Shown: one piece after another, positions 2,096 through 43,620 of the stretch
Position numbering within the stretch: the first letter of the stretch is position 1
Layout of the letters: every line of letters begins with the position of its first letter
From: a bacterium
GTDB lineage: Bacteria; UBP6; UBA1177; JAKLFG01
Reading direction: 5' to 3'
Assembly: GCA_022709425.1 (NCBI GenBank)
Contig: JAKLIW010000005.1
Span: forward strand, 1,422-65,421
Length of the DNA: 64,000 nt
The notes under the pieces: model-generated
The model's input: only the letters and a program-made list of their open reading frames with translations
Database searches by the model: none
Told to the model about the DNA's origin: nothing
Program-made: the position numbers and the translations under genes

Positions 2096-5000
2096 TCAGC
2101 GGCCGCTCCATTCCTTTAGCGCCTTTCCGGTGGCAGAAGCGGCGTCACGCATCAGTTCCCACGGGGTGCCGGTGAACAGGAGTTTCCCACCGTCGGGACC
2201 GCCGCCGGGGCCGAGGTCGATCACCGTGTCGGCCGCCGCGATGAGCGGTTCGCTGTGGGTCGCCATGAGAATGGTCGAACCGTGGCGCGCGATGTCGCTG
2301 AAAAGCGCGCAAAGTTCCGCGATGTCGGCCGGGTGGAGCCCCGCCTCCGGTTCGTCGAGGAGGTAGAGCACCTGCTCTTTCCCCTTGCCGGCGATGAGCC
2401 GCGCCGCGAGGTGAAGCCGCTGGAGTTCGCCCGCCGAACAGCGGTCGGTCGCCTGTCCCATGGTGAGATAGCCGAGCCCCGCCTTCTCGAGTATCGCCAG
2501 CCCGTGCGCCATTACTTTATCGCCGCTGAACAGCGTTGTGCCGTCGCGCACCGTCAGTGTGTGGATGTCGGCGATACTCTTTTCGTGCAGGCGGACGGTC
2601 AGCACCTCGGGGTTGAAGCGCGCGCCGTTGCAGGCGGGACAGGGCGCCTCGACATCGGGAAGGAAGTCGAGCGCCACCGTTTCGCGGCCGCTCCCTTTGC
2701 AGGTCTCGCACCGTCCCGATGCCGTCAGAAAACTGAAATGGCTCTTGGTGAAGCCGCGTTCTTTTGCTTCGGGCGTCGCCGCGAAAAGATTCCGCAGACG
2801 GTCGGCGAGCCCCGTGGCGGTCAGCAGGGTGCTCATGACCGACGCGGTGTGGCGCATCCGTTCGAGCGACAGGATATCGCTGAACCGGTCGAGTCCGGCG
2901 ATGGCGGCGCATTCCTGCGGATGGCCCGCCGCACCGCTCGCGGCGATGACCGCGAACAAAAGCGACGATTTGCCGCTCCCCGACCGGCCGGTCAGCGCGA
3001 CGACCGCCGGGACCGGGATATCGAGCGTCAAACTTTTAAGATTATGAGCGTCTGCTTTTTCGATGTGGATGACCGCCTCCGGTGCATTGCTTTTTCTCTC
3101 CGGCACCGTACCGTGCAGATGATCGCCGGTGAGCGTTACGCCGGGACGGAGCAGTTCGTCGGGCGTTCCCGCGGCGGTGATGCGTCCCCCTTCCGAACCG
3201 GCGCCGGGGCCCAGTTCGACCATCCGGTCGGCCATCCGCATGAGCTGCGGCGCATGATCGACCGTGATGAGGGTGTTCCCGGCGGCGGGGACCTCACGGA
3301 GCAGTTTCCCCAGTTCGGCGCGGTCGGCCGGATGGAGTCCGCGTCCCGGTTCGTCTATCACATAGCAGACGCCGGTGAGGCCGTTGAAGAGTATCGCTGC
3401 GATGCCGAGCCGCCGGTATTCGCCGCCCGAAAGCGACATCGTTTTGCGGTCGGGCGACAGGTAGCCGAGTCCGACGCGGACAAGCGCTTCGAGGCGGGGG
3501 ATGAGGGCGTCGACGATCGTCCGTTCCTCCGGTTTCATGGCTGAAATTCCGCTAAAGAATTTGAGCGCGGCGGCGGCGGGAAGCGCCGAGAGTTGGTCTA
3601 TCGTCGTGCCGAACACCGTGACAGACCGGGCGATGGCGTTGAGTCCGCTCGCGGTGCAGGCGGCGCAGGGGATATCGCTCATCACCATCTCGATCGTCTT
3701 GCCGCGGGTGTTGTCGTGCCGCAGCAGGTACTCCTCCTCGACGAGCGGCAAGAGTCCTTTCCAGACGCTGGTGAACCGATGCGCTCCGTCGCGGGCGCCC
3801 CGCTTGAAATGCCAGTCGACCGCGTAGACCGTGTCGCCGGCGCCGTTCAGTATCAGGTCGCGCGCCGCGTCGGAGAGGGCGTTGTAGGGTTGCGTCAGGT
3901 CGATGCCGTGGACGGCGCACATCGCCTGCAGCATCGCGATGGTCTTGCCGTCGGGTTCGCCGTAGGAGCGGCCGGTCGGCGTTCCGTCGAGCGCTCCGGC
4001 GATGAGCGGCCGGTCGGGATGCGATATCAGTTTAAGGGGATCGGTCTTGCGCAGGAAGCCGAGCCCGCGGCACTCGGGGCAGGCGCCCTCTTCATGGTTC
4101 GGCGAGAACTGCGCCGCGCGCCAACCGGCCCCGGCACTACGGGCGAAGAGGAGCCGGTAGTGATCCTGAATATCGGTCACGGTGCCGACGGTCGAGCGCG
4201 GATGGCCCCGGTCGGTGTCCTGTGCGCCGATCCCGACGGCCGGGAGCAGTCCGCTCCACGAACCGGCCTCCGCGCCGCCCGGCGTATCGAGGCGACTGCG
4301 CAGATAGCTCGGAAAGGTCTCCAGATAACTGTTGCGGCCGATGGCGTAGAGCGTGTCGAAGACGAGCGACGACTTGCCGCTTCCCGATCGGCCGGTCACC
4401 ATCGTCCAGCGGTTCTCGGGGAACGAGACAGTGACCTGCTTGAGATTGTTGGTGGTGACGGCATTAAGCGTGAGCGGCATTTCATGGGGGGCAGACTTCT
4501 CACCGCCGACGAAGGATTCCCCACCGGCGCAGAAGGCCCGAAGTGCAGCGGCGGTGAGACTGTCGGGATGGTTCAGTACCTCGGCGGGCGTGCCGGTCGC
4601 GACGACCTTCCCGCCGTGGTGGCCGCTTCCCGGTCCCATGTCGATAAGATGATCGGCGGCGTGGATGAGCCGCAGATCGTGGGTCACCGCGACGACGGTG
4701 TTGCCGCGCCGCACCAGATCGTTCAGCGCTTTGGCAAGGAGCGCGGTATCGGCCGGATGGAGTCCGACGGTCGGTTCGTCGAAGATGTAGAGGTCGTTGC
4801 CTCCCTCTTTCTTGCCGAGCGCGGCAGCCAGTTTCAGCCGCTGCGCCTCGCCGCCCGAAAGGGTGGTCGCGGGCTGGCCGAGGGTGATATAGCCGAGTCC
4901 GAGCGAACACAAGATATCGAGGAATCGCCCGATGGGACGGTCGTCGGCGAAGAAGAGCAATGCTTCGGCGATGGAGAGATCGAGCACTGCGGCGATGTTC

Positions 5001-8958: not shown

Positions 8959-11052
8959 ATGAAACGGGAAAAGAGGATATTCGGCGCCATCGCGGCGTTC
9001 GTGATGATCTTCTTCCTTATCATCCTCTATAGACTCTACGACATCCAGATACTGCGTCACGAGGAGCTCGACCGTTATTCCTCGTCGTCCGAGATAATAA
9101 AGACCATCAAGGCGCGCCGCGGGGCGATATACGACCGCAACGGCGAGGTGCTCGCGATCTCCGAACCGCGGGTCGATCTGGCGGTCGATCCCAACGGCAT
9201 CAAGGACAAGCGGGGAATCGCGGCGCTTCTGGCGTCGGCGGCTGGATTTGACGCCGAAGAGGTCTTCCGCACCCTTTCCCGGAAAGGCAATTTCCGTTAT
9301 CTCAAGAAAGATGTCGGATATGAGACGGTACGGGCGATACAGCAGGAACGGGAAACGGCGCTGGTCCGCCTGCGCGAACTCGAACGGAAGCGCGGCCTTG
9401 ATGATGCGAATGAGCATGATCGCAAACGGCTGGCCCAGCTGGCGAGCGATCTCAATTATGTCATTTTCGTGGACGGCTTCAAGCGCATCTACCCGCAGGG
9501 GAAACTGCTCGCCAACGTGATCGGCTGGGTGTCGCAGCACGACGGTGAGGGGCTCGGCGGACTGGAACTCTCATTCAACAAACATCTCTCGGGCGGCGAG
9601 GTCAAGATCCGGCGCCTCTACATACCTGGGAGCGGAGAGGGTGCGCTTGAGATAGAAAAAGAGATGGGCGCTACGCAGGCCGGCGATCTCCACTTGACCA
9701 TCGATGCCGCGATACAGGCGATCGCCGAGGAGGAACTCGACAAGATGGTCGAGAAGACCAAGGCGAAATGGGGCGGCGTGGTGGTGATGGACCCGGCGAG
9801 CGGCCGCATTCTCGCGATGGCGAACAATCCGAGTTTCCTGCCCGAGGAATACCGGCGTTATCCGCTGGAAAAACGGCGTAATCATACCGTATCGGACCTG
9901 TTCGAACCCGGTTCGACCATGAAGGTCTTCTCGATACTCGCCGCAATGAACGAAAACCTGATGCGGCCGGGCGAATTGGTCAACGGCCATAACGGCGTCT
10001 TCAAGTTCGGCGGTCGGCTCATTCATGACACGCACGGCAAAGGGCTGATGACGCTCGAGGAGGTGGTGGTCCATTCGTCGAATATCGGCACGGTGCAGAT
10101 CGTCGATAGGCTCTCCTCGGAGAAACTCTACGACTACTTCGGCCGATTCGGCTTCGGCAAACGGTCGGGGTTGCAACTGCCGGGAGAATCGACGCGAGAG
10201 GTGCGGAACTACAAGAAATGGTACCCGATAGACAAGGCGAACCTCAGTTTCGGCCAAGGGCTGTCGGTCAACATGGTGCAGATGGTCCGCGCACTTTCGG
10301 TGCTGTACAACGGCGGCGTGCTGTGGCAGCCGACGATCGTCGACCGGGTGATCGATCCGGTCGGCGGGCGGACGCTCTTCGAGACGGTGCCGTCGCTCAC
10401 GCGGCTCGAGTTCAAATACACTGTCGACAAAAAGATGATCGGTATGATGGATACGGTCGTCGCCAAAGGGACCGCACTACAGGCGGCGCTCAAAGGGGTG
10501 AAGGTGGGCGGCAAGACCGGCACGAGCCAGAAGTACGATCCGGTGAAGAAGAAATACAGCTGGGACGAGGTGGTCTGTTCCTTCGTCGGCGCGGTCCCTT
10601 CCGACAATCCGAAACTGGTGATGATGGTCGTTATCGACGAACCGCAGGGTAAGGAGTATGGCGGCACGGTCGCGGCGCCGGTTTTCCGCGAGATAGCGCG
10701 GCGATCGTTACCGTTTTTCGGCGTGTATGTCGAGAAGGATGCCAAGGAGATCACTCCGATACCCGAGATGGCGGCCGAGGATATGACCGCGCCGATCGAG
10801 GGGGGTATCGAAGGGAAAGAGGTGAGCGCGGTCGATGTGGTGGTCGTGCCTCAGCTCGAAGGGTTGGGGGTGAGCCGCGCCGCCTACGCGGTCAATCAGG
10901 CGGGACTTGATGTGGTCATATCGGGGGCGTCGTCGGGTGTGGTGAAGAAGCAGTCGCCCGCGGCCGGCGAGATAGTTCCCTACGGCACCGCCGTGATCAT
11001 CGAGAGCGAAGAAGAAAAAGAAGAGCCCAATCCGACAGAGGGAGGGGAGTGA
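8959..11052 (+). CDS. ftsI: Peptidoglycan D,D-transpeptidase FtsI (class B PBP) with C-terminal PASTA domain
   Basis: N-terminal TM anchor. Transpeptidase motifs STMK, SSN and KTGT. C-terminal PASTA-like segment VVVVPQLEGLGVSRAAYAVNQAGLDVVISGA...PYGTAVIIE. Confidence 0.9.
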   Translation: MKREKRIFGAIAAFVMIFFLIILYRLYDIQILRHEELDRYSSSSEIIKTIKARRGAIYDRNGEVLAISEPRVDLAVDPNGIKDKRGIAALLASAAGFDAEEVFRTLSRKGNFRYLKKDVGYETVRAIQQERETALVRLRELERKRGLDDANEHDRKRLAQLASDLNYVIFVDGFKRIYPQGKLLANVIGWVSQHDGEGLGGLELSFNKHLSGGEVKIRRLYIPGSGEGALEIEKEMGATQAGDLHLTIDAAIQAIAEEELDKMVEKTKAKWGGVVVMDPASGRILAMANNPSFLPEEYRRYPLEKRRNHTVSDLFEPGSTMKVFSILAAMNENLMRPGELVNGHNGVFKFGGRLIHDTHGKGLMTLEEVVVHSSNIGTVQIVDRLSSEKLYDYFGRFGFGKRSGLQLPGESTREVRNYKKWYPIDKANLSFGQGLSVNMVQMVRALSVLYNGGVLWQPTIVDRVIDPVGGRTLFETVPSLTRLEFKYTVDKKMIGMMDTVVAKGTALQAALKGVKVGGKTGTSQKYDPVKKKYSWDEVVCSFVGAVPSDNPKLVMMVVIDEPQGKEYGGTVAAPVFREIARRSLPFFGVYVEKDAKEITPIPEMAAEDMTAPIEGGIEGKEVSAVDVVVVPQLEGLGVSRAAYAVNQAGLDVVISGASSGVVKKQSPAAGEIVPYGTAVIIESEEEKEEPNPTEGGE

Positions 11053-12503
11053 TGCGACTAGTGGAACTCAAGCGCCGAATAGCGTACGAGATACTTGCCG
11101 ACAACGCGCCCGACGATGACATCGAGGTGCGCGACATCGTCGTCGACAGCCGTCGGGTGACGCCGGGATGTCTCTTTTTCGCGGTGCGCGGCGAAAAGGC
11201 CGACGGTCACGATTTCATCGAGCAGGCGCTTCTGCAGGGTGCCGCCGCTGCCTTCGGTGTGCGCGATCTGACGTTTCCCGGCTATGTGCGCGTCGCCGAT
11301 ATCCATGAAACGCTGCGCGCCGTATCGCCGGCGGTATATGGCGACCCGCAGAAGGCGATGCATTTCATCGGGGTGACCGGCACCAACGGTAAAACGACTA
11401 CGACCCACATCATCGAGAAGATACTGTCGGGCGTGTCGCCCACTGGGCTGATCGGGACGCTCGGTTGCCGCTGGGGCGGCCGTACCGTGGCTCCCGAGAA
11501 TACGACCCCCTTCCCCTGGACGTGGTACCGGACCCTCGCCGCGATGCGTCACGAGGGCGTTCGGTTCGTAGTGAGCGAGGTCAGTTCGCATGCGCTCGAT
11601 CAGGAACGGATCGCCGGGACCCAGTTCGACGCGGCGCTTTTCACCAACTTCACGCGCGATCATCTCGATTATCATAAGACCGAGGAGGCGTACTTCGCCG
11701 CGAAAAAACGGCTCTTTGACGAATATCTCCGCAACGACGGGCTTGCGGTGGTGAACCTCGATGATCCGAAGGGGCGGGAACTTACTCGTCTGCTCGACGG
11801 CAAGCGGCCGCTTGCGACCTTCTCCCTCACCGACCGGAGCGCCGATCTGTGGGTGAAGCATATGATGGCGCGCGGCGCCGGTTACGAACTGCTTCTATCC
11901 TACCGTGGCGACGATATCGCGGCGCGGCTCGATCTGCCGGGTCGTTTCAACATCTCGAACCTGCTTGGCGCGCTCCTTGCCGTGTCGCCGTGGATGGAAC
12001 CGGCGCAGGCATCTGCGCTCGCGGCGGGCGCCGTGGTGCCGGGCCGCATGGAGCGGGTGGGAACGCGCGGCCGGATATTCGTCGATTACGCTCATTCGCC
12101 CGATGCGCTGGAAAAGGTGCTCGCGGCGGCCAAGGAATTCGGCGGTGGCGTTAAGCTCATCGTCGTGTTCGGTGCGGGCGGCGACCGCGACAAAGGGAAA
12201 CGGCCGCTTATGGGAGAAGTGGCGGCGAAGTATGCCGACACCGTCATCGTCACCTCCGACAATCCGCGCACCGAAAAGCCCGACGCGATCATCGCCGATA
12301 TCGTCGGCGGCATCAAACGGAAGGAAGGGCTGGAAGTGATACCTGATCGCAGCGCCGCGATAGAACGGGCGCTCAAACTCATGCGTGACGAGGATGTGGT
12401 CATCGTCGCGGGCAAAGGGGCCGAGGATTACCAGATCATCGGGACCGAGAAGCGGCACTTCTCGGACCACGAAGAGATACGCAGACACTTGGGAGAATCA
12501 TGA
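11049..12503 (+). CDS. murE: UDP-N-acetylmuramoyl-L-alanyl-D-glutamate--2,6-diaminopimelate ligase MurE
   Basis: Mur ligase P-loop GVTGTNGKTTTTHI. DNPR motif (DNPRTE) specific for meso-DAP-adding MurE. ATGA overlap with ftsI. Confidence 0.92.
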   Translation: MMRLVELKRRIAYEILADNAPDDDIEVRDIVVDSRRVTPGCLFFAVRGEKADGHDFIEQALLQGAAAAFGVRDLTFPGYVRVADIHETLRAVSPAVYGDPQKAMHFIGVTGTNGKTTTTHIIEKILSGVSPTGLIGTLGCRWGGRTVAPENTTPFPWTWYRTLAAMRHEGVRFVVSEVSSHALDQERIAGTQFDAALFTNFTRDHLDYHKTEEAYFAAKKRLFDEYLRNDGLAVVNLDDPKGRELTRLLDGKRPLATFSLTDRSADLWVKHMMARGAGYELLLSYRGDDIAARLDLPGRFNISNLLGALLAVSPWMEPAQASALAAGAVVPGRMERVGTRGRIFVDYAHSPDALEKVLAAAKEFGGGVKLIVVFGAGGDRDKGKRPLMGEVAAKYADTVIVTSDNPRTEKPDAIIADIVGGIKRKEGLEVIPDRSAAIERALKLMRDEDVVIVAGKGAEDYQIIGTEKRHFSDHEEIRRHLGES

Positions 12504-13840
12504 TGCTGGACCACACGATGGTCAACGAGGCGCTCGCGCGGTGCGGATCGACGGCGCGGGTCGACGCAACGCTCTTCGGCGCGGTCACGATCGACAGCCG
12601 CACGGCGCGGCGCGGCGATATCTTCTGCGCGTTCAAAGGCGAAAAGGTCGACGGTCACTCCTTCGTCGCGGCGCTCGTGGCGCAGGGAGTGTTTTGCGTC
12701 GGCAGCGATCAGATGGGCATTGCGGGGTATGTGCAGGTCGCCGATGTGGTGCAGTTCCTCGCGGTATTGGCGCGGCTCCGGCGCGACGCGCAGAATTCGC
12801 AGGTCATCGCCATCACCGGTTCGTCGGGAAAAACGACCACGCGTGAATTCACCGCGCGGATGCTGACGCTGTGCGGCAAAAGCGTTTACGGCACGAGCGG
12901 CAACCTCAACAATCACCTCGGTCTGCCGCTGACGCTGCTCAACGCGCCCGACGACCGCGATTTCATCGTGCTCGAGATGGGGATGAACCATGCCGGGGAG
13001 ATCGCCCATCTCTGCGCGGCGGCCGATCCCGACGCGGTCCTCATCACCAACATCGGTTTCGCCCACATCGGGAATTTCAATTCGCGCGACGAACTGGCGC
13101 AGGCGAAACTCGAGATATTCGATCATTCGCGCGGCCGCATCGCCGCCGATATCGACGATCCGTACATCGCGGGGTGGATCGCCGCTCATCCCGGACGCGC
13201 CGCGACGACCTATTCGACCGCAGGGAACAAGGCCGATCTCACGGTGCGGAATACTGATGAGGGCCATATCGTTCTAAGATGGCAGGGGCGTGAATATGCC
13301 GCGCAGATGCCCGACCTGCCCAACTACATGGTGCAGAATTTCGCGGCCGCTGCGGCGTTGGTGTTGCCCTACACCGGATCGCCCGAGTCGCTTTTTGCGG
13401 TCTTTGAGGGACTGAAGCTCCCGAAATATCGAGGGGAAGAGGTGAAGATGGGGGATCGGGTAATCGTAGCCGACTGCTACAACGCAAATCCTGATAGCAT
13501 GTTGAGATCAATAGAGAATTTCATCAGAAAGGAGGGCTCCGGAGTGGCCGACGGGCGCTATCTGGTGCTCGGTGATATGGCCGAACTGGGTAAATTTGCA
13601 GAAAAATTTCATAGAGAACTTGTAAAATATATCAAAACCCTTACAGTGGTAAACAAGAGTTTTTTGATAGGCGAGGAGTTCGAAAAGATCCGCGACGAAT
13701 TCATCGATGACGAGCGAGTGGTCTTTTTCGGCTCTATGGATGATCTTTCGGCGGCGTTGCCGTCGCGCGGGCGTTTCCTACTAAAAGGGTCGCGCCGCAA
13801 CCGATTGGAGTTGCTCTTCGACAGGACAGGAGGTCAGTGA
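12500..13840 (+). CDS. murF: UDP-N-acetylmuramoyl-tripeptide--D-alanyl-D-alanine ligase MurF
   Basis: ITGSSGKTTTRE P-loop and Mur ligase domains. Overlaps the murE stop. Confidence 0.9.
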   Translation: MMLDHTMVNEALARCGSTARVDATLFGAVTIDSRTARRGDIFCAFKGEKVDGHSFVAALVAQGVFCVGSDQMGIAGYVQVADVVQFLAVLARLRRDAQNSQVIAITGSSGKTTTREFTARMLTLCGKSVYGTSGNLNNHLGLPLTLLNAPDDRDFIVLEMGMNHAGEIAHLCAAADPDAVLITNIGFAHIGNFNSRDELAQAKLEIFDHSRGRIAADIDDPYIAGWIAAHPGRAATTYSTAGNKADLTVRNTDEGHIVLRWQGREYAAQMPDLPNYMVQNFAAAAALVLPYTGSPESLFAVFEGLKLPKYRGEEVKMGDRVIVADCYNANPDSMLRSIENFIRKEGSGVADGRYLVLGDMAELGKFAEKFHRELVKYIKTLTVVNKSFLIGEEFEKIRDEFIDDERVVFFGSMDDLSAALPSRGRFLLKGSRRNRLELLFDRTGGQ

Positions 13841-13841
13841 A

Positions 13842-14924
13842 ATGTTGCTTTACCTCAAACTCTGGTACCTGCAGTCGGTGCCGCAGTTCAATGTACTCAC
13901 CTATATCACGTTCCGTACCTTCATGGCGGTCTTCACCGGCTTTATCCTCTCTCTCATTGTCTACCCCTATTTCATCGCATATCTCAAACGCATCAAGATG
14001 GAGCAGGCGATACGGACCGACGGACCGCAGGCCCATCTGGCCAAGGCGGGAACCCCGGCGATGGGCGGCGTCATCATACTCTTGTCGGTTCTCGTCAACA
14101 TATTCCTGTGGACCGATTTCCTGAAGAACTTCTGGATACAGTCCATGACCCTGCTGATCGTGCTCTTCGGCCTCATCGGCTATCTCGACGACTGGCTGAA
14201 GGTCTCGAAACGCAACCCGCAGGGGCTCGCTTCGCGCTGGAAGTTCCTGATGCAGGTGGTATTCGCGACCGCCTTTATGTTGTTGCTCTATTATCATAAG
14301 GGCTTCGAGCCGACGCTGGTGGTGCCGATATTCAAATCGCTCACCTTCGACATCGGCTGGTGGTACATACCCTTCGGCGTGCTGGTGATCGTCGGCACTT
14401 CCAACGGACTCAATTTCACCGACGGCATGGACGGTCTGGCCATCGTGCCGACGATGATATCGATGTTGCTGCTGGCGATCATCGTGTATCTGGTCGGTCA
14501 CGCGGCCTTCGCTAATTATCTCCATATGCCGCTGGTACGGGGCGCGGGCGAGCTGGCCATCATCGGCGGCGCCACCATCGGCGCGGCGCTCGCATTCCTG
14601 TGGTTCAACAGCTATCCCGCCTCGATATTCATGGGCGACACCGGCGCGCTCTCACTCGGCGCGATGATCGGCGCCTTCACGGTCGTCACCAAGACCGAAC
14701 TTCTTTCGCTCATATTCAACGGCCTGTTCGTGGTCGAGGTGCTGTCGGTCATCCTGCAGGTCGCCTTCTTCAAAACGACGGGACGCCGCATATTCCGCAT
14801 GGCGCCGATACACCACCATTTCGAGTTGGGCGGCAATGCGACCGAACCGAAGCTCATCGTCCGCTTCTGGATACTTTCGATACTGCTTGCGCTCCTTTCC
14901 ATCGCGACGATCAAGGTGAGGTAG
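13842..14924 (+). CDS. mraY: Phospho-N-acetylmuramoyl-pentapeptide transferase MraY
   Basis: Polytopic membrane protein with FMGDTGALSLGAMIGA and PIHHHFEL motifs. Confidence 0.95.
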   Translation: MLLYLKLWYLQSVPQFNVLTYITFRTFMAVFTGFILSLIVYPYFIAYLKRIKMEQAIRTDGPQAHLAKAGTPAMGGVIILLSVLVNIFLWTDFLKNFWIQSMTLLIVLFGLIGYLDDWLKVSKRNPQGLASRWKFLMQVVFATAFMLLLYYHKGFEPTLVVPIFKSLTFDIGWWYIPFGVLVIVGTSNGLNFTDGMDGLAIVPTMISMLLLAIIVYLVGHAAFANYLHMPLVRGAGELAIIGGATIGAALAFLWFNSYPASIFMGDTGALSLGAMIGAFTVVTKTELLSLIFNGLFVVEVLSVILQVAFFKTTGRRIFRMAPIHHHFELGGNATEPKLIVRFWILSILLALLSIATIKVR

Positions 14925-14928
14925 CACT

Positions 14929-16233
14929 ATGAAAAAGGCGCTCATACTCGGGCTCGGCATATCGGGCGTCGAAACGGCGAAGTTCCTCGCCGCGAAGAAG
15001 TGGGAGGTCGTCGTCCACGACGACAATGCGGCGAAGCTGGCAGAGGCGGTGAAAGGCTTTGCGACGCTCACCGACGGAGCGTTGCCGAAAGAACTCGATC
15101 TGCTGGTCATCAGCCCCGGGGTGCCGCAGAGCCATCCGCTGGTCGCCGCCGCCACGCAGCGCGGCATCGATATCGCCGGCGAGATGGAGGTGGCGGCGCG
15201 GTTCATCACCAACGAAACGGTCATCGCGGTCACCGGCACCAACGGAAAAAGCACGACCGTGACGCTCATTCACGAGATGCTGATCGCCGACGGCCGCAAG
15301 AGTGCGCTGACCGGCAACATCGGCGCGCCGATCATATCGTTCGTGGAGAAAGGGTACGAGTTCCTCGTGGTCGAGGTATCGAGTTTCCAGATAGAGACGC
15401 TTCGCGCGATGCATCCCGACGCGGCGCTGATACTCAATGTGAGTCCCGATCATCTCGATCGCTACGCGAGTTACGACGACTACCTGATGACCAAGGTGAA
15501 GCTCGGCCGGCTGGCGAAAGAGGAAGGCTTCGTCGTGGTCAACGGCGGCGACGAGCCGCTCTGCGCCGCGGCGTCGGGTATCGCCCGCCGCGCCGTCTAT
15601 TTCTCGGCGACGGGAAAAAGCGACGCGATATGGGACGGTCGGACCGTTTCCTACTACGGTGTCGCGGTGGAGCTGCAGAAGACGAGATTGCGCGGCGAAC
15701 ATAATGTCGAGAATCTCATGGCGGCGATGATCGCCGCCGCCCCCTTCATGAAAAAACCGGCGTTCATGGCCGCCGCCGCTTATGCATTCAAGCCGCTACC
15801 GCACCGCATGGCGCCCGCCGGGATCATCGGCGCGGTTGAGTTCATCGATGACTCGAAGGGGACCAATGTCGGCGCGGTCGAGAAATCGCTTGCCGGTTTC
15901 GCCGATCGTTCGGTCGTTCTTATCCTCGGCGGGGTCGACAAGGGGGGGAGTTATCAGCCGCTACGCGAGCTGGCCGATCGGAAGTGCCGCGGCGTGGTGG
16001 TGATGGGGCAGGCGGCGCCCAAGATACTTGCCGATTTCGAAGGCTATCTGCCGCTCGAAAAAGCCGATTTGATGGCCGACGCGGTGGAAAAAGCATACCG
16101 GTTCGCGGCGGGTGAGGCGACCGTCCTGTTCTCGCCCGCCTGTTCGAGTTTCGATATGTACGAGAACTATAAGAAGCGGGGCGACGATTTCGTGAAGAAG
16201 GTGGCGGAACTGAAAAAACGGGTAGAGGGCTGA
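14929..16233 (+). CDS. murD: UDP-N-acetylmuramoylalanine--D-glutamate ligase MurD
   Basis: GTNGKSTT P-loop and Mur ligase family architecture. Conserved position in the cluster. Confidence 0.9.
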   Translation: MKKALILGLGISGVETAKFLAAKKWEVVVHDDNAAKLAEAVKGFATLTDGALPKELDLLVISPGVPQSHPLVAAATQRGIDIAGEMEVAARFITNETVIAVTGTNGKSTTVTLIHEMLIADGRKSALTGNIGAPIISFVEKGYEFLVVEVSSFQIETLRAMHPDAALILNVSPDHLDRYASYDDYLMTKVKLGRLAKEEGFVVVNGGDEPLCAAASGIARRAVYFSATGKSDAIWDGRTVSYYGVAVELQKTRLRGEHNVENLMAAMIAAAPFMKKPAFMAAAAYAFKPLPHRMAPAGIIGAVEFIDDSKGTNVGAVEKSLAGFADRSVVLILGGVDKGGSYQPLRELADRKCRGVVVMGQAAPKILADFEGYLPLEKADLMADAVEKAYRFAAGEATVLFSPACSSFDMYENYKKRGDDFVKKVAELKKRVEG

Positions 16234-16236
16234 GCG

Positions 16237-17325
16237 ATGCCGCGTTCGGTGAAATTCTACTTCGCACTTTTCTTCCTGCTGGTGATGTTCGGCATGGTCA
16301 TGGTCTTCAACATCAAGGTTTTCGTCGTCAACCGTCCCGATGCACAGGTCTTGTCGATACTGCGCGGTCAGATATTGAATCTCTGCATCGCGGGGGCCGG
16401 CTTCATCGCCGCCTATCTGATGAACATCGACGTGGTCCGCAGTTGGATAAAATACCTGCTCCTGTTCATCATCCTGCTGCTGCTTGCCACCTTCGTCATC
16501 GGGACCGAGGTGAACGGTTCTACCCGTTGGATAAACCTCCACTTCATGATGATCCAACCGTCGGAATTCGCCAAGCTCGTCGTCATTTTCTATCTCGCCG
16601 AGGTCATCTGCAACAAACGCGAACGGATGGGCCTATGGCAGGAACTCGTCTATCCATTCGGCCTCGTTTCGGCGCTGGTGCTGGTCATCGCGGTCGAGGA
16701 TCTCGGCACGGCGCTCATCATTTTCGCGACCTCGCTGACGCTCATGCTTATGGGAGGTATGCGCTTCAAATACTTCGCGGCGCTCATCGCTCTGTCGCTG
16801 CTGGTGGTGACGATACTGATACTCATGAAGCCCTACCGGCTCGAACGGATCAAGGTGTGGCGCGATCCGTGGAAATACAAACAGGCGCAAGGATACCAGC
16901 AGGTGCAGTCCGAAATAGCGCTGGGCCGCGGCGGCGCTACGGGCGTCGGCTTCGGCAACAGTCAGCGGAAACTCCGCTATCTGCCCGAGGCATCGACCGA
17001 CTTCATCTTCGCCATCGTCGGCGAGGAGTTCGGGTTCGTCGGTGCCGCGCTGTTCATCATCGCCCTCATCGTCCTGTTCATCACGGGGGTCTATTTCGCC
17101 TTGTCGCGCGGCGACCCGTTCTCGCTCTACCTCGCGGCGGGCATCGTACTGATACTCGGGATACAGGCGGCGGTGAATCTCGGCGTGGTCACTTCGACCC
17201 TGCCGAACAAAGGGGTGCCGTTGCCGTTCATCAGCTACGGTGGCTCATCGTTGCTTTCGTCGTGTCTCATGATCGGGTTCCTGCTCAACGTCGTGGTGAC
17301 CGACAGCCGGTCGCAATATCAGTGA
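16237..17325 (+). CDS. ftsW: SEDS-family peptidoglycan glycosyltransferase FtsW
   Basis: 10-TM SEDS protein. PFISYGGSS-type motif (PLPFISYGGSSLL). Confidence 0.9.
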   Translation: MPRSVKFYFALFFLLVMFGMVMVFNIKVFVVNRPDAQVLSILRGQILNLCIAGAGFIAAYLMNIDVVRSWIKYLLLFIILLLLATFVIGTEVNGSTRWINLHFMMIQPSEFAKLVVIFYLAEVICNKRERMGLWQELVYPFGLVSALVLVIAVEDLGTALIIFATSLTLMLMGGMRFKYFAALIALSLLVVTILILMKPYRLERIKVWRDPWKYKQAQGYQQVQSEIALGRGGATGVGFGNSQRKLRYLPEASTDFIFAIVGEEFGFVGAALFIIALIVLFITGVYFALSRGDPFSLYLAAGIVLILGIQAAVNLGVVTSTLPNKGVPLPFISYGGSSLLSSCLMIGFLLNVVVTDSRSQYQ

Positions 17326-17329
17326 GGAT

Positions 17330-18427
17330 GTGATGACAACGGCGGAGAAGACCATTCTTATCGCGGGCGGCAAGACGGGGGGACACCTCTTTCCCGGCAT
17401 CGCCGTGGCCGAGGTTCTCCGTCAGCGCGGCCTCACGGTGGTCTTTGTCGGTTCACGCGGCGGACTTGAGGAAAAGGAACTGCCGGCGCGCGGTTTCACA
17501 CTCGAATTCGTGACGGTGGGCGGCTTGAAAGGAAAGAACATCATAGAAACGATAAAGAATCTCGCGGTCCTGCCGATCGCATTGCTACAGGCGTTGCGTC
17601 TCATCGGGAAACACCGTGCCGACGCGGTCGTATCTCTCGGCGGTTTCGCGGCGGGGCCGGTGGCGCTCGCGGCATGGTTGCGGCGCCGTGCGGTCTATGC
17701 GATGGAACAGAATTCGATCCCCGGTATCACCAATCGTATCGTCGGCCGTTTCGCCGACCGTATATTCATGAGTTTCCCCGATGTGCGGGGCCGCTTCCCG
17801 GCCGGCCGCACACTGCTGACCGGTAATCCGGTGCGGCGCGAGGTCATCGACTGCGCCCGCAAGCGGCTCGATACCGACCGGCCGGTGCTCGCGGTCTTTG
17901 GCGGTTCGCAGGGCGCCGCGTCGCTCAACGAACTCATGATGCGACTGGTCGCCGATCATCCCGCCGTTGCGAACGGGTTCTATATCATCCATCAGACCGG
18001 GGAACGCGATCTTGCCGCTGTTCGCGCACATTATGCGGCGCATGGCGTCGAGGCGGAGATCCAGCCTTTTGTCCGCGATATCGGCAGTTACTACAAGGCG
18101 GCCGACATCATCGTCTGCCGCGCCGGAGCGACCACCATCGCCGAGCTCGCGGCGCTCGGGAAGCCGGCGATCTATGTGCCCTTTCCCCATGCCGCCGACA
18201 ACCACCAGTACTACAATGCCCGCTCGGTGGTCGAGCAGGGCGGCGGGATCGTCGTTGAGGATGCGGGGCCGGTCGCCGAAAAGGCGGCGAAGCTCGCGGC
18301 GGCGCTCGATCAATTTGCAAAGAATCGTGAGGTGTGGCGTTCCCGCATGACTGCTTTGACCGAGAACCGCGCCGATGTCGTCATCGCCGACGCGATACTT
18401 TCCGGTATCGGGGGAGGGGCCGCATGA
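17330..18427 (+). CDS. murG: UDP-N-acetylglucosamine--N-acetylmuramyl-(pentapeptide) pyrophosphoryl-undecaprenol GlcNAc transferase MurG
   Basis: N-terminal GGKTGGHLFPGIAVAE. GT28 fold. Confidence 0.92.
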   Translation: MMTTAEKTILIAGGKTGGHLFPGIAVAEVLRQRGLTVVFVGSRGGLEEKELPARGFTLEFVTVGGLKGKNIIETIKNLAVLPIALLQALRLIGKHRADAVVSLGGFAAGPVALAAWLRRRAVYAMEQNSIPGITNRIVGRFADRIFMSFPDVRGRFPAGRTLLTGNPVRREVIDCARKRLDTDRPVLAVFGGSQGAASLNELMMRLVADHPAVANGFYIIHQTGERDLAAVRAHYAAHGVEAEIQPFVRDIGSYYKAADIIVCRAGATTIAELAALGKPAIYVPFPHAADNHQYYNARSVVEQGGGIVVEDAGPVAEKAAKLAAALDQFAKNREVWRSRMTALTENRADVVIADAILSGIGGGAA

Positions 18428-19773
18428 GGATACATTTCATGGGTGCCGGCGGCAGCGGTGTGAGTGGGCTCATGCTCATCGCAAAGGCTCAGGGATATAC
18501 CGTCAATGGTTGTGACGAGCGGCGCACCGCCTATACCGAGATGCTGGAGAAACGGGGGATACCGGTCGCTCTCGGTCACGACACGGCCCATCTGGACCAC
18601 GCCGATGTCCTCGTACGCACTTCGGCCGTTTGCGATGATATCGAAGAGGTGATCGCGGCACGGGCGATCAATCTGCCGATCCTGACCCGCGGCGAATTTC
18701 TCGCCGAACTGCTTGCCAAAAACACCGTCATCGGTATCGCCGGCGCGCACGGCAAGACCTCGACCACGTGGTTGACGTGGCAGTTCCTGCGGCACTTCGG
18801 TGTTGCCGCTTCGATATACGCCGGCGGCAAACTGGACGGCGTGAACGCGGTGGCGGCGGGTGACCCGTGGGTGGTCGAACTGGACGAATCGGACGGTTCG
18901 ATATTCCGTATGCGGCCCAAGGTGCTCGTCCTCACCAATCTAGAACTCGAACATGTTGATTACTACGGCACCGATGCCGAAATGTTGCGTCGGTTCCGCG
19001 AATATATGACGCTCGTCGGCCATCGCCGGTTCGTCGTCGGTCGCGGATATCCGCTCTCCGACCGGCTGTTCGAGGATTTCGGCGGGCTGACCTTCCCGAC
19101 ACGCGCCGAGGTGGCCCAGAAAAAAGCGGTGAAGGGCGGTCCCGCCTGCAACTTCACCTGCGAGACGGGCCGTTGGATAGTTGAATTCCACGGGGTACGC
19201 AGCGATCTGGGATCGGCCAATGAACCGGCTTACGTCATCCAGAACCGCGCCGCGGCGCTGCTGGCCGCCTATACCCATATTCGAGAGCTTCACCGTGAGT
19301 ATGAACCGATACCCCCCGATTTCTGGATGAACATCCGCGGTGTCGAGCGTCGTTTCGAGAAGAAAAAGGTCTGGCGCGGGATCGCGCTCATCGACGACTA
19401 TGCGCATCACCCCTCGGAGGTGCAGGCGGTGATGGACCGCGCCACGGCATCGTACGGCCGTTATGTGCTGGTATTCCAGCCGCACCGGCATACCCGATTC
19501 GACCGTTTTTTCGACGATTTTGCGCAGGTGCTCAAGGCGGCCCCCGCTCTCATCATCCTCCCGGTGTTCGGCGCGGGCGAATCGGCGGGGAAGCGGGATA
19601 CGCGCGAACTGCAGGAACAGCTCAAGAAAAACGGCATGAACACCGCATACTACTGCGAGAATATCGGCGAGGCGGGCGTACTGCTCTCGTCGGGCGCCCT
19701 CGAATGGGTCCGCGCCATCATAACGGCGGGAGCGGGTGATGTGAACGAACTTTTCGGATTGCTGGAGGAGTGA
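18424..19773 (+). CDS. murC: UDP-N-acetylmuramate--L-alanine ligase MurC
   Basis: MRIHFMGAGGSGVSGLM and IGIAGAHGKTSTTW. Start set to the in-frame ATG at 18424 (ATGA overlap with murG); the track ORF starts upstream at 18334. Confidence 0.9.
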   Translation: MRIHFMGAGGSGVSGLMLIAKAQGYTVNGCDERRTAYTEMLEKRGIPVALGHDTAHLDHADVLVRTSAVCDDIEEVIAARAINLPILTRGEFLAELLAKNTVIGIAGAHGKTSTTWLTWQFLRHFGVAASIYAGGKLDGVNAVAAGDPWVVELDESDGSIFRMRPKVLVLTNLELEHVDYYGTDAEMLRRFREYMTLVGHRRFVVGRGYPLSDRLFEDFGGLTFPTRAEVAQKKAVKGGPACNFTCETGRWIVEFHGVRSDLGSANEPAYVIQNRAAALLAAYTHIRELHREYEPIPPDFWMNIRGVERRFEKKKVWRGIALIDDYAHHPSEVQAVMDRATASYGRYVLVFQPHRHTRFDRFFDDFAQVLKAAPALIILPVFGAGESAGKRDTRELQEQLKKNGMNTAYYCENIGEAGVLLSSGALEWVRAIITAGAGDVNELFGLLEE

Positions 19774-39496: not shown

Positions 39497-40684
39497 ATGT
39501 ACCGCAGAGCGATGTTCGACACGGTCCGCGACCGCCTGACCGAACCGAGAAAATTCATACAGGTACTCGCCGGTCCCCGTCAGGTCGGCAAAACGACGCT
39601 CATCACCCAACTCCTCGAAACGCTCGACCTGCCGCACGCCTACGCGTCGGCCGACGGCGCCGAGCGGCCGATCTGGATAGAACAGCAGTGGCAGGCGGCG
39701 CGTGTCCGGCTTGCCGAGTCGCCGCGCAAGGAATTCCTGCTCGTCCTCGACGAGATCCAGAAAGTGAACGGATGGACCGATGCCGTCAAACGGTTGTGGG
39801 ACGAGGACACGCGGGAGAAGCGGGCGCTCAAACTGGTCATCCTCGGCTCGTCGCCGCTACTCATCAGGAGCGGCCTGAACGAAAGTCTGGGCGGCCGGTT
39901 CGAACTCATCCGCTGTACCCATTGGAGTTTCGCCGAGATGCGCGACGCCTTCGGCTTCGATACCGACCGGTATCTCTTCTTCGGCGGCTATCCCGGAACG
40001 GCCGGGCTGACCGGCGATGAGAAGCGGTGGCGCGGATATGTCCGCGAGTCGCTCATAGAAACGACCATCTCGAAGGATGTCCTGCTGATGAACCGGATCG
40101 ACAAACCGGCGTTGTTGCGCACGCTGTTCCTGCTTGGGGCCCGTTATTCGGGGCGGATCTTGTCCTACACGAAGATGCAGGGGCAGTTGCAGGATGCCGG
40201 GAATATCGTCACGCTGGCCCACTATCTGGAACTTCTCGACGGGGCGGGGATGCTTGCGGGACTTGAGAAATACGCGGGGGAGGAGGTGCGCCGCCGCGGG
40301 TCGAGTCCCAAGTTGCAGGTCTACAACAACGCCCTTTTCACCGCCGTGCGGGACGACGGGTTCGCCGAGGTGCGGCGCGAACCGGAACGCTGGGGACGCA
40401 TCGTCGAATCGGGGGTCGGCGCGTTCCTGCTGAACGAAGCGGTTTCGCGCGGTCTGAAACTGCTCTATTGGCGCGACGGCGGCGGCGAGGTCGATTTCGT
40501 GTTGATGAAAGGTGACCGCATCGTGGCGATCGAGGTGAAAAGTGGCGCGTCGCGGGAACGCCCGGCGGGTCTGGAGAAGTTCGTCGCCGGGACAACGGGA
40601 AAAAAGGTCAAACCCTATCTGGTCGGGAGCGGCGGTATCGCGCTCGATGAGTTCTTCTCGATGGATGTCGAGTCCTTGTTCTGA
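39497..40684 (+). CDS. AAA-family ATPase with DUF4143-type C-terminal domain
   Basis: Walker A GPRQVGKTT, Walker B LVLDEIQ. Overall architecture matches the widespread AAA_14 + DUF4143 ATP-binding protein family. AAGGAGGAG RBS. Confidence 0.75.
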   Translation: MYRRAMFDTVRDRLTEPRKFIQVLAGPRQVGKTTLITQLLETLDLPHAYASADGAERPIWIEQQWQAARVRLAESPRKEFLLVLDEIQKVNGWTDAVKRLWDEDTREKRALKLVILGSSPLLIRSGLNESLGGRFELIRCTHWSFAEMRDAFGFDTDRYLFFGGYPGTAGLTGDEKRWRGYVRESLIETTISKDVLLMNRIDKPALLRTLFLLGARYSGRILSYTKMQGQLQDAGNIVTLAHYLELLDGAGMLAGLEKYAGEEVRRRGSSPKLQVYNNALFTAVRDDGFAEVRREPERWGRIVESGVGAFLLNEAVSRGLKLLYWRDGGGEVDFVLMKGDRIVAIEVKSGASRERPAGLEKFVAGTTGKKVKPYLVGSGGIALDEFFSMDVESLF

Positions 40685-40761
40685 TCTAAAAGAAACCGGC
40701 CGGAATTACCCGGCCGGCATCGTGAGGTGGACAAAGAGCAGGGAACAAAGAGCGGGGGGAA

Positions 40762-40989
40762 TTACTTCTTCGCGCCGCAGTTGCACTTGCCCTTTTCGCC
40801 GCACTTGCAATCCTTGGCGCAGTTGCACTGCTTGCCTTCGTGGCAGCCGCACTTGCATTCCTTGCCGCAGGTGCATTCGGTGGTCTTGCCCTTCTGGCAG
40901 CCGCAACTACAGCCTTCGCCCGCCATCAGATTCGCCGTACCGAGGGTCATCGCCGTCAGCACCAGCGCCATCGCCAACATTTTCTTCAT
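40762..40989 (-). CDS. Secreted metallothionein-like Cys-rich mini-protein (75 aa precursor)
   Basis: ATG at 40989 with AAAGGAG RBS. Signal peptide MKKMLAMALVLTAMTLGTANLMA. Mature about 52 aa with 14 Cys in CxC/CxCGC/KCxC arrangement, Lys/Gly-rich, no aromatic residues. Confidence 0.7.
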   Translation of the reverse strand: MKKMLAMALVLTAMTLGTANLMAGEGCSCGCQKGKTTECTCGKECKCGCHEGKQCNCAKDCKCGEKGKCNCGAKK

Positions 40990-41033
40990 CGCTTCTTCTC
41001 CTTTCAAAGGTTACGAAACAGCGACCATACTAG

Positions 41034-41049
41034 AGCACGATGCGTGCCA
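41034..41049 (-). promoter_or_regulatory. Sigma54 (-24/-12) promoter upstream of the metallothionein-like gene
   Basis: The minus strand reads TTGGCACG-catc-GTGCT, against the consensus TGGCACG-N4-TTGCW. GG and GC are correctly spaced, and the site is about 46 nt upstream of the ATG. Confidence 0.7.
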
Positions 41050-41159
41050 ACGGCATGATGTTTTTTGTCTCTTGTAAAAACAATGAGTTGCGTTTCATTT
41101 CGGTGCTTCGGAAAAGAAAAGTGTAGACATTTCATCGTCACATTTGTAGAATAGTCTCC

Positions 41160-42536
41160 ATGATGGGGAGAAGATTACTCATAGCCGATGACGACGCGAG
41201 CTTCCGGGAGGTGATGTCGTTCACCCTCACCGAAGCGGGCTACACGGTCGACGCCGCGGCCGACGGGATGGCGGCGCTCGAACTCTTCCGCCGTCAGCGC
41301 CATCCGGTGGTCATCACCGATCTCAAGATGCCGGGGATGGACGGGATGGAGCTGACCAAACGGGTGAGCGCCCTTGCGCCGGGAACGCTGGTCATCGTGA
41401 TAACGGCCTTCGGCGAGGTCGATACCGCTGTGGCCGCGATGAAGGCGGGCGCCTTCGATTTCATACCCAAGCCGTGCGACCGCGACCATCTCAAGATAGT
41501 GGTGGGACGCGCCTTTGAACACGCGCGGCTCGCCGATGAGAACGCGGTGCTCAAGCGGACGCCGTCGAGCGAGGGGAAGGAACTCATCTACCGGTCGGCC
41601 GCGATGCAGACGGTGGTGACGGTCGCCGACCGCGTCGCCGAAAGCGATCCGACCCTGCTCATCACCGGCGAGAGCGGCACCGGTAAGGAACTGCTCGCCC
41701 GCCGCATTCACCGCCGGTCGACCCGTGCGTCGGGGCCGCTGGTAGTGGTCAACTGCGCCGCGATACCGGCCGAACTACTCGAAAGCGAACTTTTCGGTCA
41801 CCGCAAAGGATCGTTCACCGGCGCGGTGCGCGACGCCCGGGGAAAGTTCGAACTGGCCCACGGCGGGACGCTCTTTCTCGATGAGGTGGCCGAACTGCCG
41901 CTTAATCTTCAGCCGCGTCTTCTGCGCGCCCTGCAGGAGTCGGCGATAGATGTGGTCGGCGGCGAGGAACCGGTGCCGGTCGATGTCCGGGTCATCGCGG
42001 CGACCAACCGCGATCTGGCGAAACTCGTCGACGAAGGGAAGTTCCGGCTCGATCTTTTTTACCGGCTCAATGTCATCGTCCTCCACATACCGCCGCTGCG
42101 GGAGAGGAGCGAGGATATCGCGCCGCTCGCCAAACATTTCCTCGCGGTCTACGGCGGCGGCCGGCCGTTCGATCTGGGCGACGAGGCGTTGCGGCGGATG
42201 CGGCAGTACCGGTGGCCCGGCAATATCCGCGAACTGGAGAACATCTGCCAGCGGGTGACGCTCCTTGCCGACGGCGGGGTGGTGCCGCTGGAACTGATAC
42301 CCGAAACGACGCCCGAGACGGAGGGGATGGTGGTGAGCGCGGCGGGGCGCATCCAACTGCCCGCCGGGGGGATATCGCTCACGGAACTCGAGAAAGAGGT
42401 GATCGTGCAAGCGCTGGAACGGAGCGGCGGGAACAAGGCGCAGGCGGCGCGGCTGCTGCGTATCCCGCGGCACATCCTGCTCTACCGTCTCGAACAGCAC
42501 GGCATCACCGGGAAGGGGAACGATGAGAAAGGGTAA
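41160..42536 (+). CDS. Sigma54-dependent response regulator (NtrC family: REC + AAA+ + Fis-type HTH)
   Basis: Receiver domain with phospho-acceptor Asp (VVITDLKMPGMDG). AAA+ sigma54 activator domain with GESGTGKE Walker A and GSFTGA (GAFTGA-type) motif. C-terminal HTH. Confidence 0.92.
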   Translation: MMGRRLLIADDDASFREVMSFTLTEAGYTVDAAADGMAALELFRRQRHPVVITDLKMPGMDGMELTKRVSALAPGTLVIVITAFGEVDTAVAAMKAGAFDFIPKPCDRDHLKIVVGRAFEHARLADENAVLKRTPSSEGKELIYRSAAMQTVVTVADRVAESDPTLLITGESGTGKELLARRIHRRSTRASGPLVVVNCAAIPAELLESELFGHRKGSFTGAVRDARGKFELAHGGTLFLDEVAELPLNLQPRLLRALQESAIDVVGGEEPVPVDVRVIAATNRDLAKLVDEGKFRLDLFYRLNVIVLHIPPLRERSEDIAPLAKHFLAVYGGGRPFDLGDEALRRMRQYRWPGNIRELENICQRVTLLADGGVVPLELIPETTPETEGMVVSAAGRIQLPAGGISLTELEKEVIVQALERSGGNKAQAARLLRIPRHILLYRLEQHGITGKGNDEKG

Positions 42537-43620
42537 GGAACTGCTCTCGCTCAAGGCGTGGGGACTCCTCTGGCTGCCGATACTCGCCATCACTATGGCC
42601 CATTTCACCACCGACGCCGAGATGGTGTGGGTCCACGACATCCTGCGGCGGCTCTACTACATCCCGATAGTGCTCGGCGCCTTCGGCTGGGGCCTGCACG
42701 GGGCGCTCGCGGCCTCCATCGCATCGTCGCTGGTCTATCTGCCGCACGCTTTTCAAATGTTCTTTCACCATTTCCACCACGATCCGGGGGGCTCGACCGA
42801 AAAGATACTGGAGATACTCCTCTTCAACATCATCGCCCTCATCGCCGGGGTGCTGGTGGAGCGCGAACGGCGCGAACGGCGGCGGCAGGAGGAGATCGCG
42901 CGGAAACTCTCCGAGACGCTCGACGAGATGAAACTGCTCGAAGAACAGCTCATCCGCGCCGGACGCCTGCAGGCGCTGGGCGAGCTGACCGCGGGGCTCG
43001 CCCACGAGATAAAGAACCCGCTCGCCTCGATAAAGGGGGCGGCCGAGATCGTGGCCGACGGCATACCGGCCGATTCGCCGCGCCGCCGGATGGTCGATAT
43101 CCAACGCGCCGAGATAGATCGGCTCACCGCGCTTCTCGAACGGTTCCTCGCCTTCGCGCGGCCCAAGGACTTCGTCGTGTCTCAGGTCGACATCGCCACG
43201 CTCATGAGCGACACCGTCGCCTTCATCGCGCCGCAGGCGGCGAAGAAGAAGGTGCGTTTTGATACGCGGTTTGAGCCGCTCACGGTCCCGGCCGACCGCG
43301 AGAAACTGACGCAACTGCTGCTCAACATCCTCCTCAACGCCGTCGATGCCTCGCCCGAAGGGGCGGCGGTGACCGTTACGACCGAACGGCGCCGCAAGGG
43401 AAAGGCCGACTACGCCTGTATCACCATCGCCGACCGCGGGGCGGGGATAGCGGCCGAACTGCGCGACAAGGTCTTCAATCCCTTCTACACCACCAAACCC
43501 GACGGAACGGGCCTCGGGCTTTCGATAGCGGCGCGCATCGCCGATCAGCACAAAGGATTCATCGAGGTGGGTTCGGCGCCGGAAGGGGGCGCGCTCTTTA
43601 CGGTCTATCTGCCGGTATAG
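42523..43620 (+). CDS. Sensor histidine kinase with four TM helices, no periplasmic domain, His-rich extracytoplasmic loop
   Basis: H-box LAHEIKNPLASI. N/G1/G2 boxes (LLNILLNAVDAS, DRGAGI, GTGLGLSI). N-terminal 110 aa has four hydrophobic helices with an FHHFHHDPGG loop. Overlaps the response-regulator gene end. Confidence 0.88.
   Translation: MRKGKELLSLKAWGLLWLPILAITMAHFTTDAEMVWVHDILRRLYYIPIVLGAFGWGLHGALAASIASSLVYLPHAFQMFFHHFHHDPGGSTEKILEILLFNIIALIAGVLVERERRERRRQEEIARKLSETLDEMKLLEEQLIRAGRLQALGELTAGLAHEIKNPLASIKGAAEIVADGIPADSPRRRMVDIQRAEIDRLTALLERFLAFARPKDFVVSQVDIATLMSDTVAFIAPQAAKKKVRFDTRFEPLTVPADREKLTQLLLNILLNAVDASPEGAAVTVTTERRRKGKADYACITIADRGAGIAAELRDKVFNPFYTTKPDGTGLGLSIAARIADQHKGFIEVGSAPEGGALFTVYLPV

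Follow-up and report, generated by a model that had tools for sequence, protein, structure and literature searches.

Described systems and the locus under study

The closest analogue of the locus considered here is zraP-zraSR of E. coli, in which the gene for a small exported protein related to stress or metals is divergent from the genes of a kinase and a sigma-54-dependent regulator of the NtrC family. The promoter of the zraP target is sigma-54-dependent. ZraR has one high-affinity target, the spacer between zraP and zraSR, implying autoregulation (PMC8249747). A comparable plan is found in a 64,000-nt stretch of bacterial contig JAKLIW010000005.1 (assembly GCA_022709425.1), referred to below at its full length as the window: a minus-strand gene for a small, exported, cysteine-rich protein is separated by a 170-nt gap (40990-41159) from plus-strand genes for an NtrC-type response regulator and a histidine kinase, the two of which overlap (Table 1). 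We read this gap, with a probability of roughly 0.7 and from sequence comparison, as a compact divergent control region in which a sigma-54 promoter would serve the small gene and two upstream dyads would bind the neighboring regulator.

The window system is not a member of ZraSR, because its equivalog scores fall far under the cutoffs (369 bits for the regulator against 760 for ZraR, 194 for the kinase against 479 for ZraS); both proteins are also far under the NtrC and AtoC equivalog cutoffs, the regulator reaching 446 bits with the ntrC model against a cutoff of 559. It differs from zraP-zraSR in other respects as well. The target is a Cys-rich protein of 75 aa that has no Pfam or NCBIfam match and is outside the ZraP/CpxP family, the regulator gene precedes that of the kinase, the kinase lacks a large periplasmic domain and has only a DUF4118-like membrane domain, and, for the regulator operon, a sigma-70-like promoter seems to take the place of a sigma-54 promoter.

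A second parallel concerns promoter geometry. At the enteric glnAp2/glnAp1 pair, according to what Reitzer and Magasanik reportedly found, two dyads for NtrC dimers lie approximately 100-140 bp upstream of the -24/-12 promoter, where they overlap and repress a sigma-70 promoter. The candidate dyads of the window, at about -107 and -130, likewise overlap a sigma-70-like promoter; however, their operator, TGTAGA-N4-TCTACA, differs from the enteric TGCACC-N5-GGTGCA, and the overlapped promoter serves the divergent regulator operon. The role of integration host factor (IHF) at RpoN-dependent promoters has been summarized (PMC7962754). As at the IHF-assisted nifH and Pu promoters, the window has an A/T-rich site of the WATCAANNNNTTR type, here near -61, with the candidate dyads on one side and the -24 element on the other, although this is a predicted site with one mismatch to the consensus.

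Further likenesses are found in six uncharacterized sigma-54 two-component systems located by Cus/Czc-type efflux genes (loci L176, L177, L179, L002, L006 and L012), whose regulators are 50-60% identical to that of the window and have the IPRHxLxYR helix, whose kinases have the same type of membrane domain, and whose sigma-54 promoters tend to have TGTAGA-type dyads ahead of them. In place of a Cys-rich secreted peptide, they have efflux pumps, HMA proteins or His-rich proteins as targets. The architecture is an ordinary one for sigma-54 promoters, that of a textbook control region. The analysis mainly confirms annotation, and its modest added value lies in the assignment of an operator and in the unusual exported Cys-rich target.

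A conserved, probable sigma-54 promoter upstream of the small gene

From 41050 to 41034 the minus strand reads TTGGCACGCATCGTGCT, within which TGGCACGcatcGTGCT (41034-41049) departs by one mismatch from TGGCACG-N4-TTGCW; its GG and GC doublets are exactly 10 bp apart, as the -24/-12 class of sigma-54 promoters requires. No other match with at most one mismatch occurs in the window. The motif by itself is not significant, because 0.51 such matches per window are expected by chance, with at least one in 39% of shuffles. It counts through its location: for a match of this quality on the correct strand of the 170-nt gap, the expectation derived from the chance rate is approximately 7e-4. Two other sigma-54-like matches, each with two mismatches, lie at 11966 (plus strand) and 45991 (minus strand), both within open reading frames (ORFs), and their count is under the chance expectation. 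By the standard spacing, the predicted 5' untranslated region of the small gene would be about 33-37 nt long, or about 34 nt for a start near 41023.

Relatives of the small protein are few (five in 5.8 billion proteins, all of the same unclassified lineage), and close orthologs of the regulator are found at 94, 81, 78 and 77% identity, the next ones being at about 60%. From the contigs of these close orthologs, together with two metagenome matches (L090 and L097) and one genome match (L015), we assembled a set of 11 distinct intergenic regions. All 11 carry a divergent small Cys-rich gene, and their gaps of approximately 170 nt align nearly without interruption. In every one, TTGGC and TGC are invariant and at fixed spacing, while the 5-nt spacer is free to vary (GCATC, ATCCC, GGAAC, GCCGG); invariant cores around a free spacer are the pattern expected from a working -24/-12 promoter. 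Mean column identity, calculated from eight divergent sequences, served as the measure of conservation (Table 1), and by it the two dyad sites discussed below are, after the promoter cores, the best-conserved blocks of the gap. A block at the Shine-Dalgarno sequence of the small gene, GAAAGGAG, is also conserved among orthologs. It is their conservation in the 11 orthologous regions, combined with recurrence of the TGTAGA dyad near homologous regulators, that raises the promoter and the repeats above chance.

The frequency of chance matches lends some weight to the possibility that the sigma-54 match is fortuitous and that the small gene is driven instead by a sigma-70-type promoter, for which a weak match exists on the minus strand at 41007-40979. 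As that match extends over both the Shine-Dalgarno sequence and the start codon, it is unable to drive the small gene. Moreover, the GG and GC cores are invariant in the 11 orthologs, down to 77% regulator identity in full-length orthologs, over a distance at which the spacer varies, and a gene for a sigma-54 activator adjoins in every case. We therefore consider a fortuitous match very unlikely. The sigma-54 promoter that the sequence-only reading had placed on the minus strand is supported by its position, its orientation, the intact NtrC-type activator gene next to it and the invariance of its cores. The interval of 46 nt given there between promoter and small-gene ATG is in fact 44 intervening nucleotides (ATG at 40989), and the distance given to the regulator, 110 nt, agrees with the 109 nt found before its ATG at 41160.

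Two wider scans placed the locus among its relatives. When a genome collection was scanned with the regulator, 80 loci were recovered, of which L015 alone shares the architecture; the others are at the level of paralogs, with at most 56% identity. Scanning metagenomes with an alignment of the small protein added L090 and L097 as the only new orthologs. L091 and L092 proved to be contigs of L015 and L087, and most of the remaining matches were unrelated proteins with a CGCQEGKECTC repeat. Genes outside the three-gene module vary among the ortholog contigs and include MazG, Fic/RhuM, AbiEii-like and AAA_14/DUF4143 ATPase genes. Such differing flanks indicate that the three genes form the conserved unit, placed at a variable junction. 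The gene downstream of the small gene (39497-40684, plus strand, and orthologous positions) is among those that vary across these contigs.

Candidate activator sites and their recurrence

Two copies of the hexamer TGTAGA, at 41122-41127 and at 41145-41150, are separated by 17 nt, as had been noted earlier from the sequence. The repeat alone carries no weight, because 92% of shuffles of the region hold at least one repeated 6-mer. Its two copies, however, are the left halves of degenerate 16-bp dyads of the form TGTAGA-N4-TCnnCA, whose centers are 23 bp apart. Site 2 is the sole match to TGTAGA-N4-TCTACA with at most one mismatch in the window (chance expectation 0.02), and agrees at 14 of 16 bases with the perfect dyad of L012. 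All orthologs retain the TGTAGA-N4-TCnnCA form at both sites, site 1 having between one and three half-site mismatches across them (a single one in L085 and L097); in L087 and L175 the first element is TGTTGA, which weakens the dyad. NtrC-type activator sites are laid out as two or more dyad-symmetric sites that precede the promoter by 70 bp or more, and the two imperfect dyads seen here follow this arrangement. An alternative 18-bp dyad centered on the first TGTAGA, GAAAAGTnTAnACTTTTC, was dropped after the TGTAGA-N4-TCTACA register emerged in L012 and L176.

This register is provided by loci with homologous regulators. Perfect TGTAGAATATTCTACA dyads occur upstream of sigma-54 promoters beside regulators with the recognition helix IPRHxLxYR, the corresponding helix in the window being IPRHILLYRL. 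In L012, whose regulator is 50% identical, arrays of perfect TGTAGAatatTCTACA precede each of two sigma-54 promoters. In L176 (60% identical), TGCAGAcattTCTACA precedes by about 111 nt the start predicted for the promoter TGGCACGCCCGTTGCT, which lies before a CusB/CzcB gene, and L009 and L010 have a layout like those of L012 and L176. The two copies in L177, AGTACAatatTCCACA and TGATCAatatTCTACA, are degenerate; spaced by 22 bp, they lie approximately 105-140 nt upstream of TGGCACGGACCTTGCT, before CusB.

Across the wider set the dyad is enriched beside regulators with this helix, though not present at all of them. An (I/V)PRHxLxYR helix is common to the regulators of the window, L001-L015 and L176-L179, and is lacking in the other 65 NtrC-type loci. 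Dyads with at most two mismatches are present in 9 of 15 IPRHxLxYR loci versus 9 of the 65 others (Fisher p = 5e-4), and those with at most one mismatch in 4 of 15 versus none of 65 (p = 9e-4). Matches in the IPRHxLxYR group also have a central ATAT in common, and the half-site TGTRGAAT is four-fold denser there (1.63 per 10 kb, versus 0.40 in the other loci). The dyads of the window are accordingly likely, judging from these sequence correspondences, to be activator sites of the neighboring regulator. Literature searches found no paper on the operator motif. Its assignment to an uncharacterized subfamily of sigma-54 activators, located by heavy-metal efflux genes in many uncultured bacteria, would permit regulon prediction.

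Two loci from Desulfuromonadales show a variant arrangement: promoter-like sequences TGGCATGcatcTTGAT and TGGCACGtacaTTGAT lie downstream of TGTAGA-type dyads (L002, about 310-325; L006, about 1125-1140). Their -12 doublet reads GA in place of GC and may represent an atypical -12 element.

Overlap with a predicted promoter for the regulator-kinase operon

A sigma-70-like -35/-10 pair directed toward the regulator gene falls on the two TGTAGA elements, a circumstance on which the sequence-only reading did not remark. The -10 hexamer ends 7 nt before the regulator ATG (TAGAAT-agtctcc-ATG), no Shine-Dalgarno sequence intervenes, and the spacing from -10 to ATG is the same in all 11 orthologs. A -10 hexamer located 5-8 nt before the start codon, in the absence of a Shine-Dalgarno sequence, is the arrangement of leaderless genes. 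Conceivably the elements are solely the -35 and -10 of this promoter, the true activator sites being located elsewhere, as for example in the regulator coding sequence. The quality of the match (10/12 with a 17-nt spacer), the invariance of the -10 and its constant distance from the ATG are in keeping with this, as is the change to TGTTGA in L087 and L175, which betters the -35 (TTGAAA) while weakening the dyad. We nevertheless regard so exclusive a role as unlikely. The same hexamers form part of perfect 16-bp palindromes before the sigma-54 promoters of loci with homologous regulators, which cannot all be sigma-70 promoters, and the conserved right halves, TCnnCA, would be left unexplained.

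The sigma-70 and activator-site readings of these elements are compatible, not exclusive. Since the dyads cover the sigma-70-like -35, the -10 and the regulator start codon, their occupancy should act on the regulator-kinase operon as well, probably repressing it, in the way that NtrC represses glnAp1. The operon of the window is probably leaderless and autoregulated through dyad occupancy.

A putative bend site near -61

Between the dyads and the promoter lies a short palindrome, TTGT (41072-75)-AAAA-ACAA (41080-83), whose gap is 4 nt and not the 5 nt previously given. The sequence-only reading had offered both this element and the TGTAGA repeat as upstream activator sites. The latter proposal stands, refined to half-sites of 16-bp dyads that are perfect near homologous regulators; the former does not. 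The element is a genuine short inverted repeat, and L087 keeps its symmetry through a paired change (CTGT...ACAG), as might be expected of a binding site for the activator. However, inverted repeats with arms as short as 4 nt are no more than chance would give (90% of shuffles of the region contain one), the palindrome does not survive in L090, L084 or L085 and is unlike the dyad found near homologous regulators, and its position of only -55 to -66 is nearer to the promoter than is usual for NtrC-type sites. A role as activator site is, in our estimation, very improbable.

The positions that are conserved fit YAA-N4-TTGnTW rather than the palindrome; written as YAA-N4-(T/C)TG-n-T-W, they are the complement of the IHF consensus WATCAANNNNTTR. 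A match with at most two mismatches is present in all 11 orthologs, constantly 39-41 nt from TTGGC, against a background of 16 such matches on both strands of the window together. In L090 the palindrome is lost, whereas the IHF match is kept and gains the consensus A (CAACTATCTGATA), and L012 has a nearly identical block that is 10 bp, or one helical turn, closer to its promoter. We consider the element near -61 best read, on these alignments, as a putative bend site of the IHF type.

Observations bearing against a sigma-54 control region

Several results weigh against the interpretation of the gap as a sigma-54-dependent control region with a metal-related target. A search of the window proteins for the RpoN box returned nothing, and neither rpoN nor IHF genes lie within the window; the presence of both in the organism is presumed. 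Site 1 of the window has three half-site mismatches and is not significant alone, and the IHF consensus is a loose one. Because the dyad consensus itself contains TAGAAT, the apparent -10 hexamer may simply follow from the dyad. Among the further loci L177-L179, fetched as a forward test, none of three had a dyad with at most two mismatches, and L177 alone had the degenerate copies described above. Of the 17 loci whose regulator has an IPRH-type helix, 7 lack even the 8-mer half-site, which indicates that the operator varies within the subfamily, being common rather than universal. Finally, the small protein had no match when compared with Pfam, NCBIfam and PDB sequences, and hence no metal-binding family among them.

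Proposed mechanism

With these points taken into account, the following sequence of events is proposed for the divergent control region. The kinase would phosphorylate the NtrC-type regulator, which would then bind the two imperfect 16-bp dyads near -107 and -130 and assemble an active ring. A bend at the IHF-like site near -61 would bring this ring to RNA polymerase-sigma-54 parked at TTGGCAC-N5-TGCT, where hydrolysis of ATP would open the promoter and yield a monocistronic mRNA for the secreted Cys-rich protein. Occupancy of the dyads may at the same time regulate a leaderless regulator-kinase transcript from the overlapping sigma-70-like promoter. The regulator retains a sigma-54 contact loop, GSFTGA, that is one substitution from GAFTGA, and the hairpin and T run that follow the small gene imply that this gene would be monocistronic. 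Within 170 bp the region would unite the sigma-54 promoter, the activator and bend sites and an overlapping promoter for the regulator, and it might find use as a biosensor component should its signal be identified.

The Cys-rich target and a possible link to metals

In the predicted target, a Sec-type signal peptide leads into 51 residues rich in Cys, of which 18 are Cys in CxC and CxCGC arrangements. The systems homologous to that of the window flank genes for CDF, CusB/CzcB-HMBD, RND pump, OEP, HMA, YHS and DUF3347 proteins; the CxCGCQEGKxCTC motif of the target is also found fused to HMA domains and to ArsR-type regulators; and the membrane domain of the kinase contains HHFHHD. Because of these three features, a metal is our best guess for the signal, and both signal and target role are probably metal-related by analogy with those systems. 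A small family of secreted Cys-rich proteins is thereby indicated as an inducible target, probably metal-responsive.

By extension, the locus may represent an undescribed metal-defense unit, in which a sigma-54 two-component system senses metal via the HHFHHD loop of its kinase and induces an exported, metallothionein-like CxC peptide via a TGTAGAATATTCTACA-type operator that defines a metal-linked subfamily of enhancer-binding proteins. We offer this as a tentative proposal, possible though on balance somewhat doubtful. An exported metallothionein-like peptide would be unusual, and a bacterial metallothionein that is both exported and controlled by sigma-54 would, if real, represent a novel type of metal buffer for the envelope. 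A literature search on sigma-54 plus metallothionein yielded nothing helpful.

Three further observations concern these proteins. The kinase has no periplasmic sensor domain, and its His-rich stretch HAFQMFFHHFHHDPGG, at about residues 70-90, lies inside the DUF4118-like membrane region; it is a candidate metal-sensing loop. The repeat C-x-C-G-C-[QH]-E-G-K-x-C-T-C (metagenome loci L093-L169) is widespread in gut and rumen metagenomes, where it occurs alone in small proteins or fused to GrpE, HisRS, ArsR-type regulators, HMA domains and membrane proteins. The copy in the 75-aa protein of the window falls in no Pfam family, in a scan that took in the window protein only. In L012, the homologous system is followed by a gene (1405-1785, minus strand) for a secreted His/Asp-rich protein of 126 aa (HHGDDDDHHGDDDHHGDD) that has no family match and is a probable metal-binding target.

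Features of the locus and additional observations

Table 1. Features of the divergent locus, in window coordinates, with mean column identity of intergenic elements
Feature	Position	Strand	Sequence or basis	Mean column identity
Sigma-54 promoter (predicted)	41034..41050	-	-24 TTGGCAC (GG 41048-41047), -12 GTGCT (GC 41036-41035)
TTGGCA (-24)				1.00
TGC (-12)				1.00
Promoter spacer				0.70
Activator dyad site 1 (candidate)	41122..41137	.	TGTAGA-catt-TCATCG; center near -107	0.86
Activator dyad site 2 (candidate)	41145..41160	.	TGTAGA-atag-TCTCCA; center near -130; last base is the A of the regulator ATG	0.93
IHF-like site (putative)	41078..41090	+	AAACAATGAGTTG, 1 mismatch to WATCAANNNNTTR; center near -61; overlaps TTGT/ACAA palindrome	0.80
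Sigma-70-like promoter for regulator-kinase operon	41124..41152	+	TAGACA-17-TAGAAT, 10/12 match in promoter scan; function predicted
Remaining intergenic stretches (background)				0.65-0.70
Predicted transcription start region, small gene	41022..41026	-	standard -12 to +1 spacing; near 41023 with C41035 as -12
Small Cys-rich gene (predicted target)	40762..40989	-	translation; ATG at 40989; 75 aa; 18 Cys in CxC/CxCGC; signal peptide; orthologs detected
Shine-Dalgarno AGGAG of small gene	40998..41002	-	read from sequence; 8 nt before ATG
Intrinsic-terminator-like hairpin and T run, 3' of small gene	40695..40718	-	terminator scan
NtrC-type response regulator	41160..42536	+	Pfam: receiver, Sigma54_activat (1e-68), Fis-type HTH (HTH_8)
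Histidine kinase	42523..43620	+	translation and Pfam: HisKA, HATPase_c, DUF4118-like membrane domain with HHFHHD

A terminator-like hairpin on the plus strand at 41043-41057, over the -24 element, was rejected as a feature of the region; its stem is broken in L015, and there is no plus-strand gene upstream to terminate. An Rfam scan of the whole window gave zero families, and a conserved RNA element in the 5' untranslated region of the small gene is therefore unsupported.

Two minor observations lie apart from the control region. In L176, an approximately 85-nt direct duplication (GAATGAGCAACTCCAACAGG...GGCTGTGGAATGAGC) between the regulator and kinase genes (3969-4058) creates an ORF of 29 aa. 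Elsewhere in the window, eight co-oriented, abutting ORFs on the plus strand (8959-19773), among them MraY (13842-14924), resemble a dcw cluster of cell-wall and division genes.

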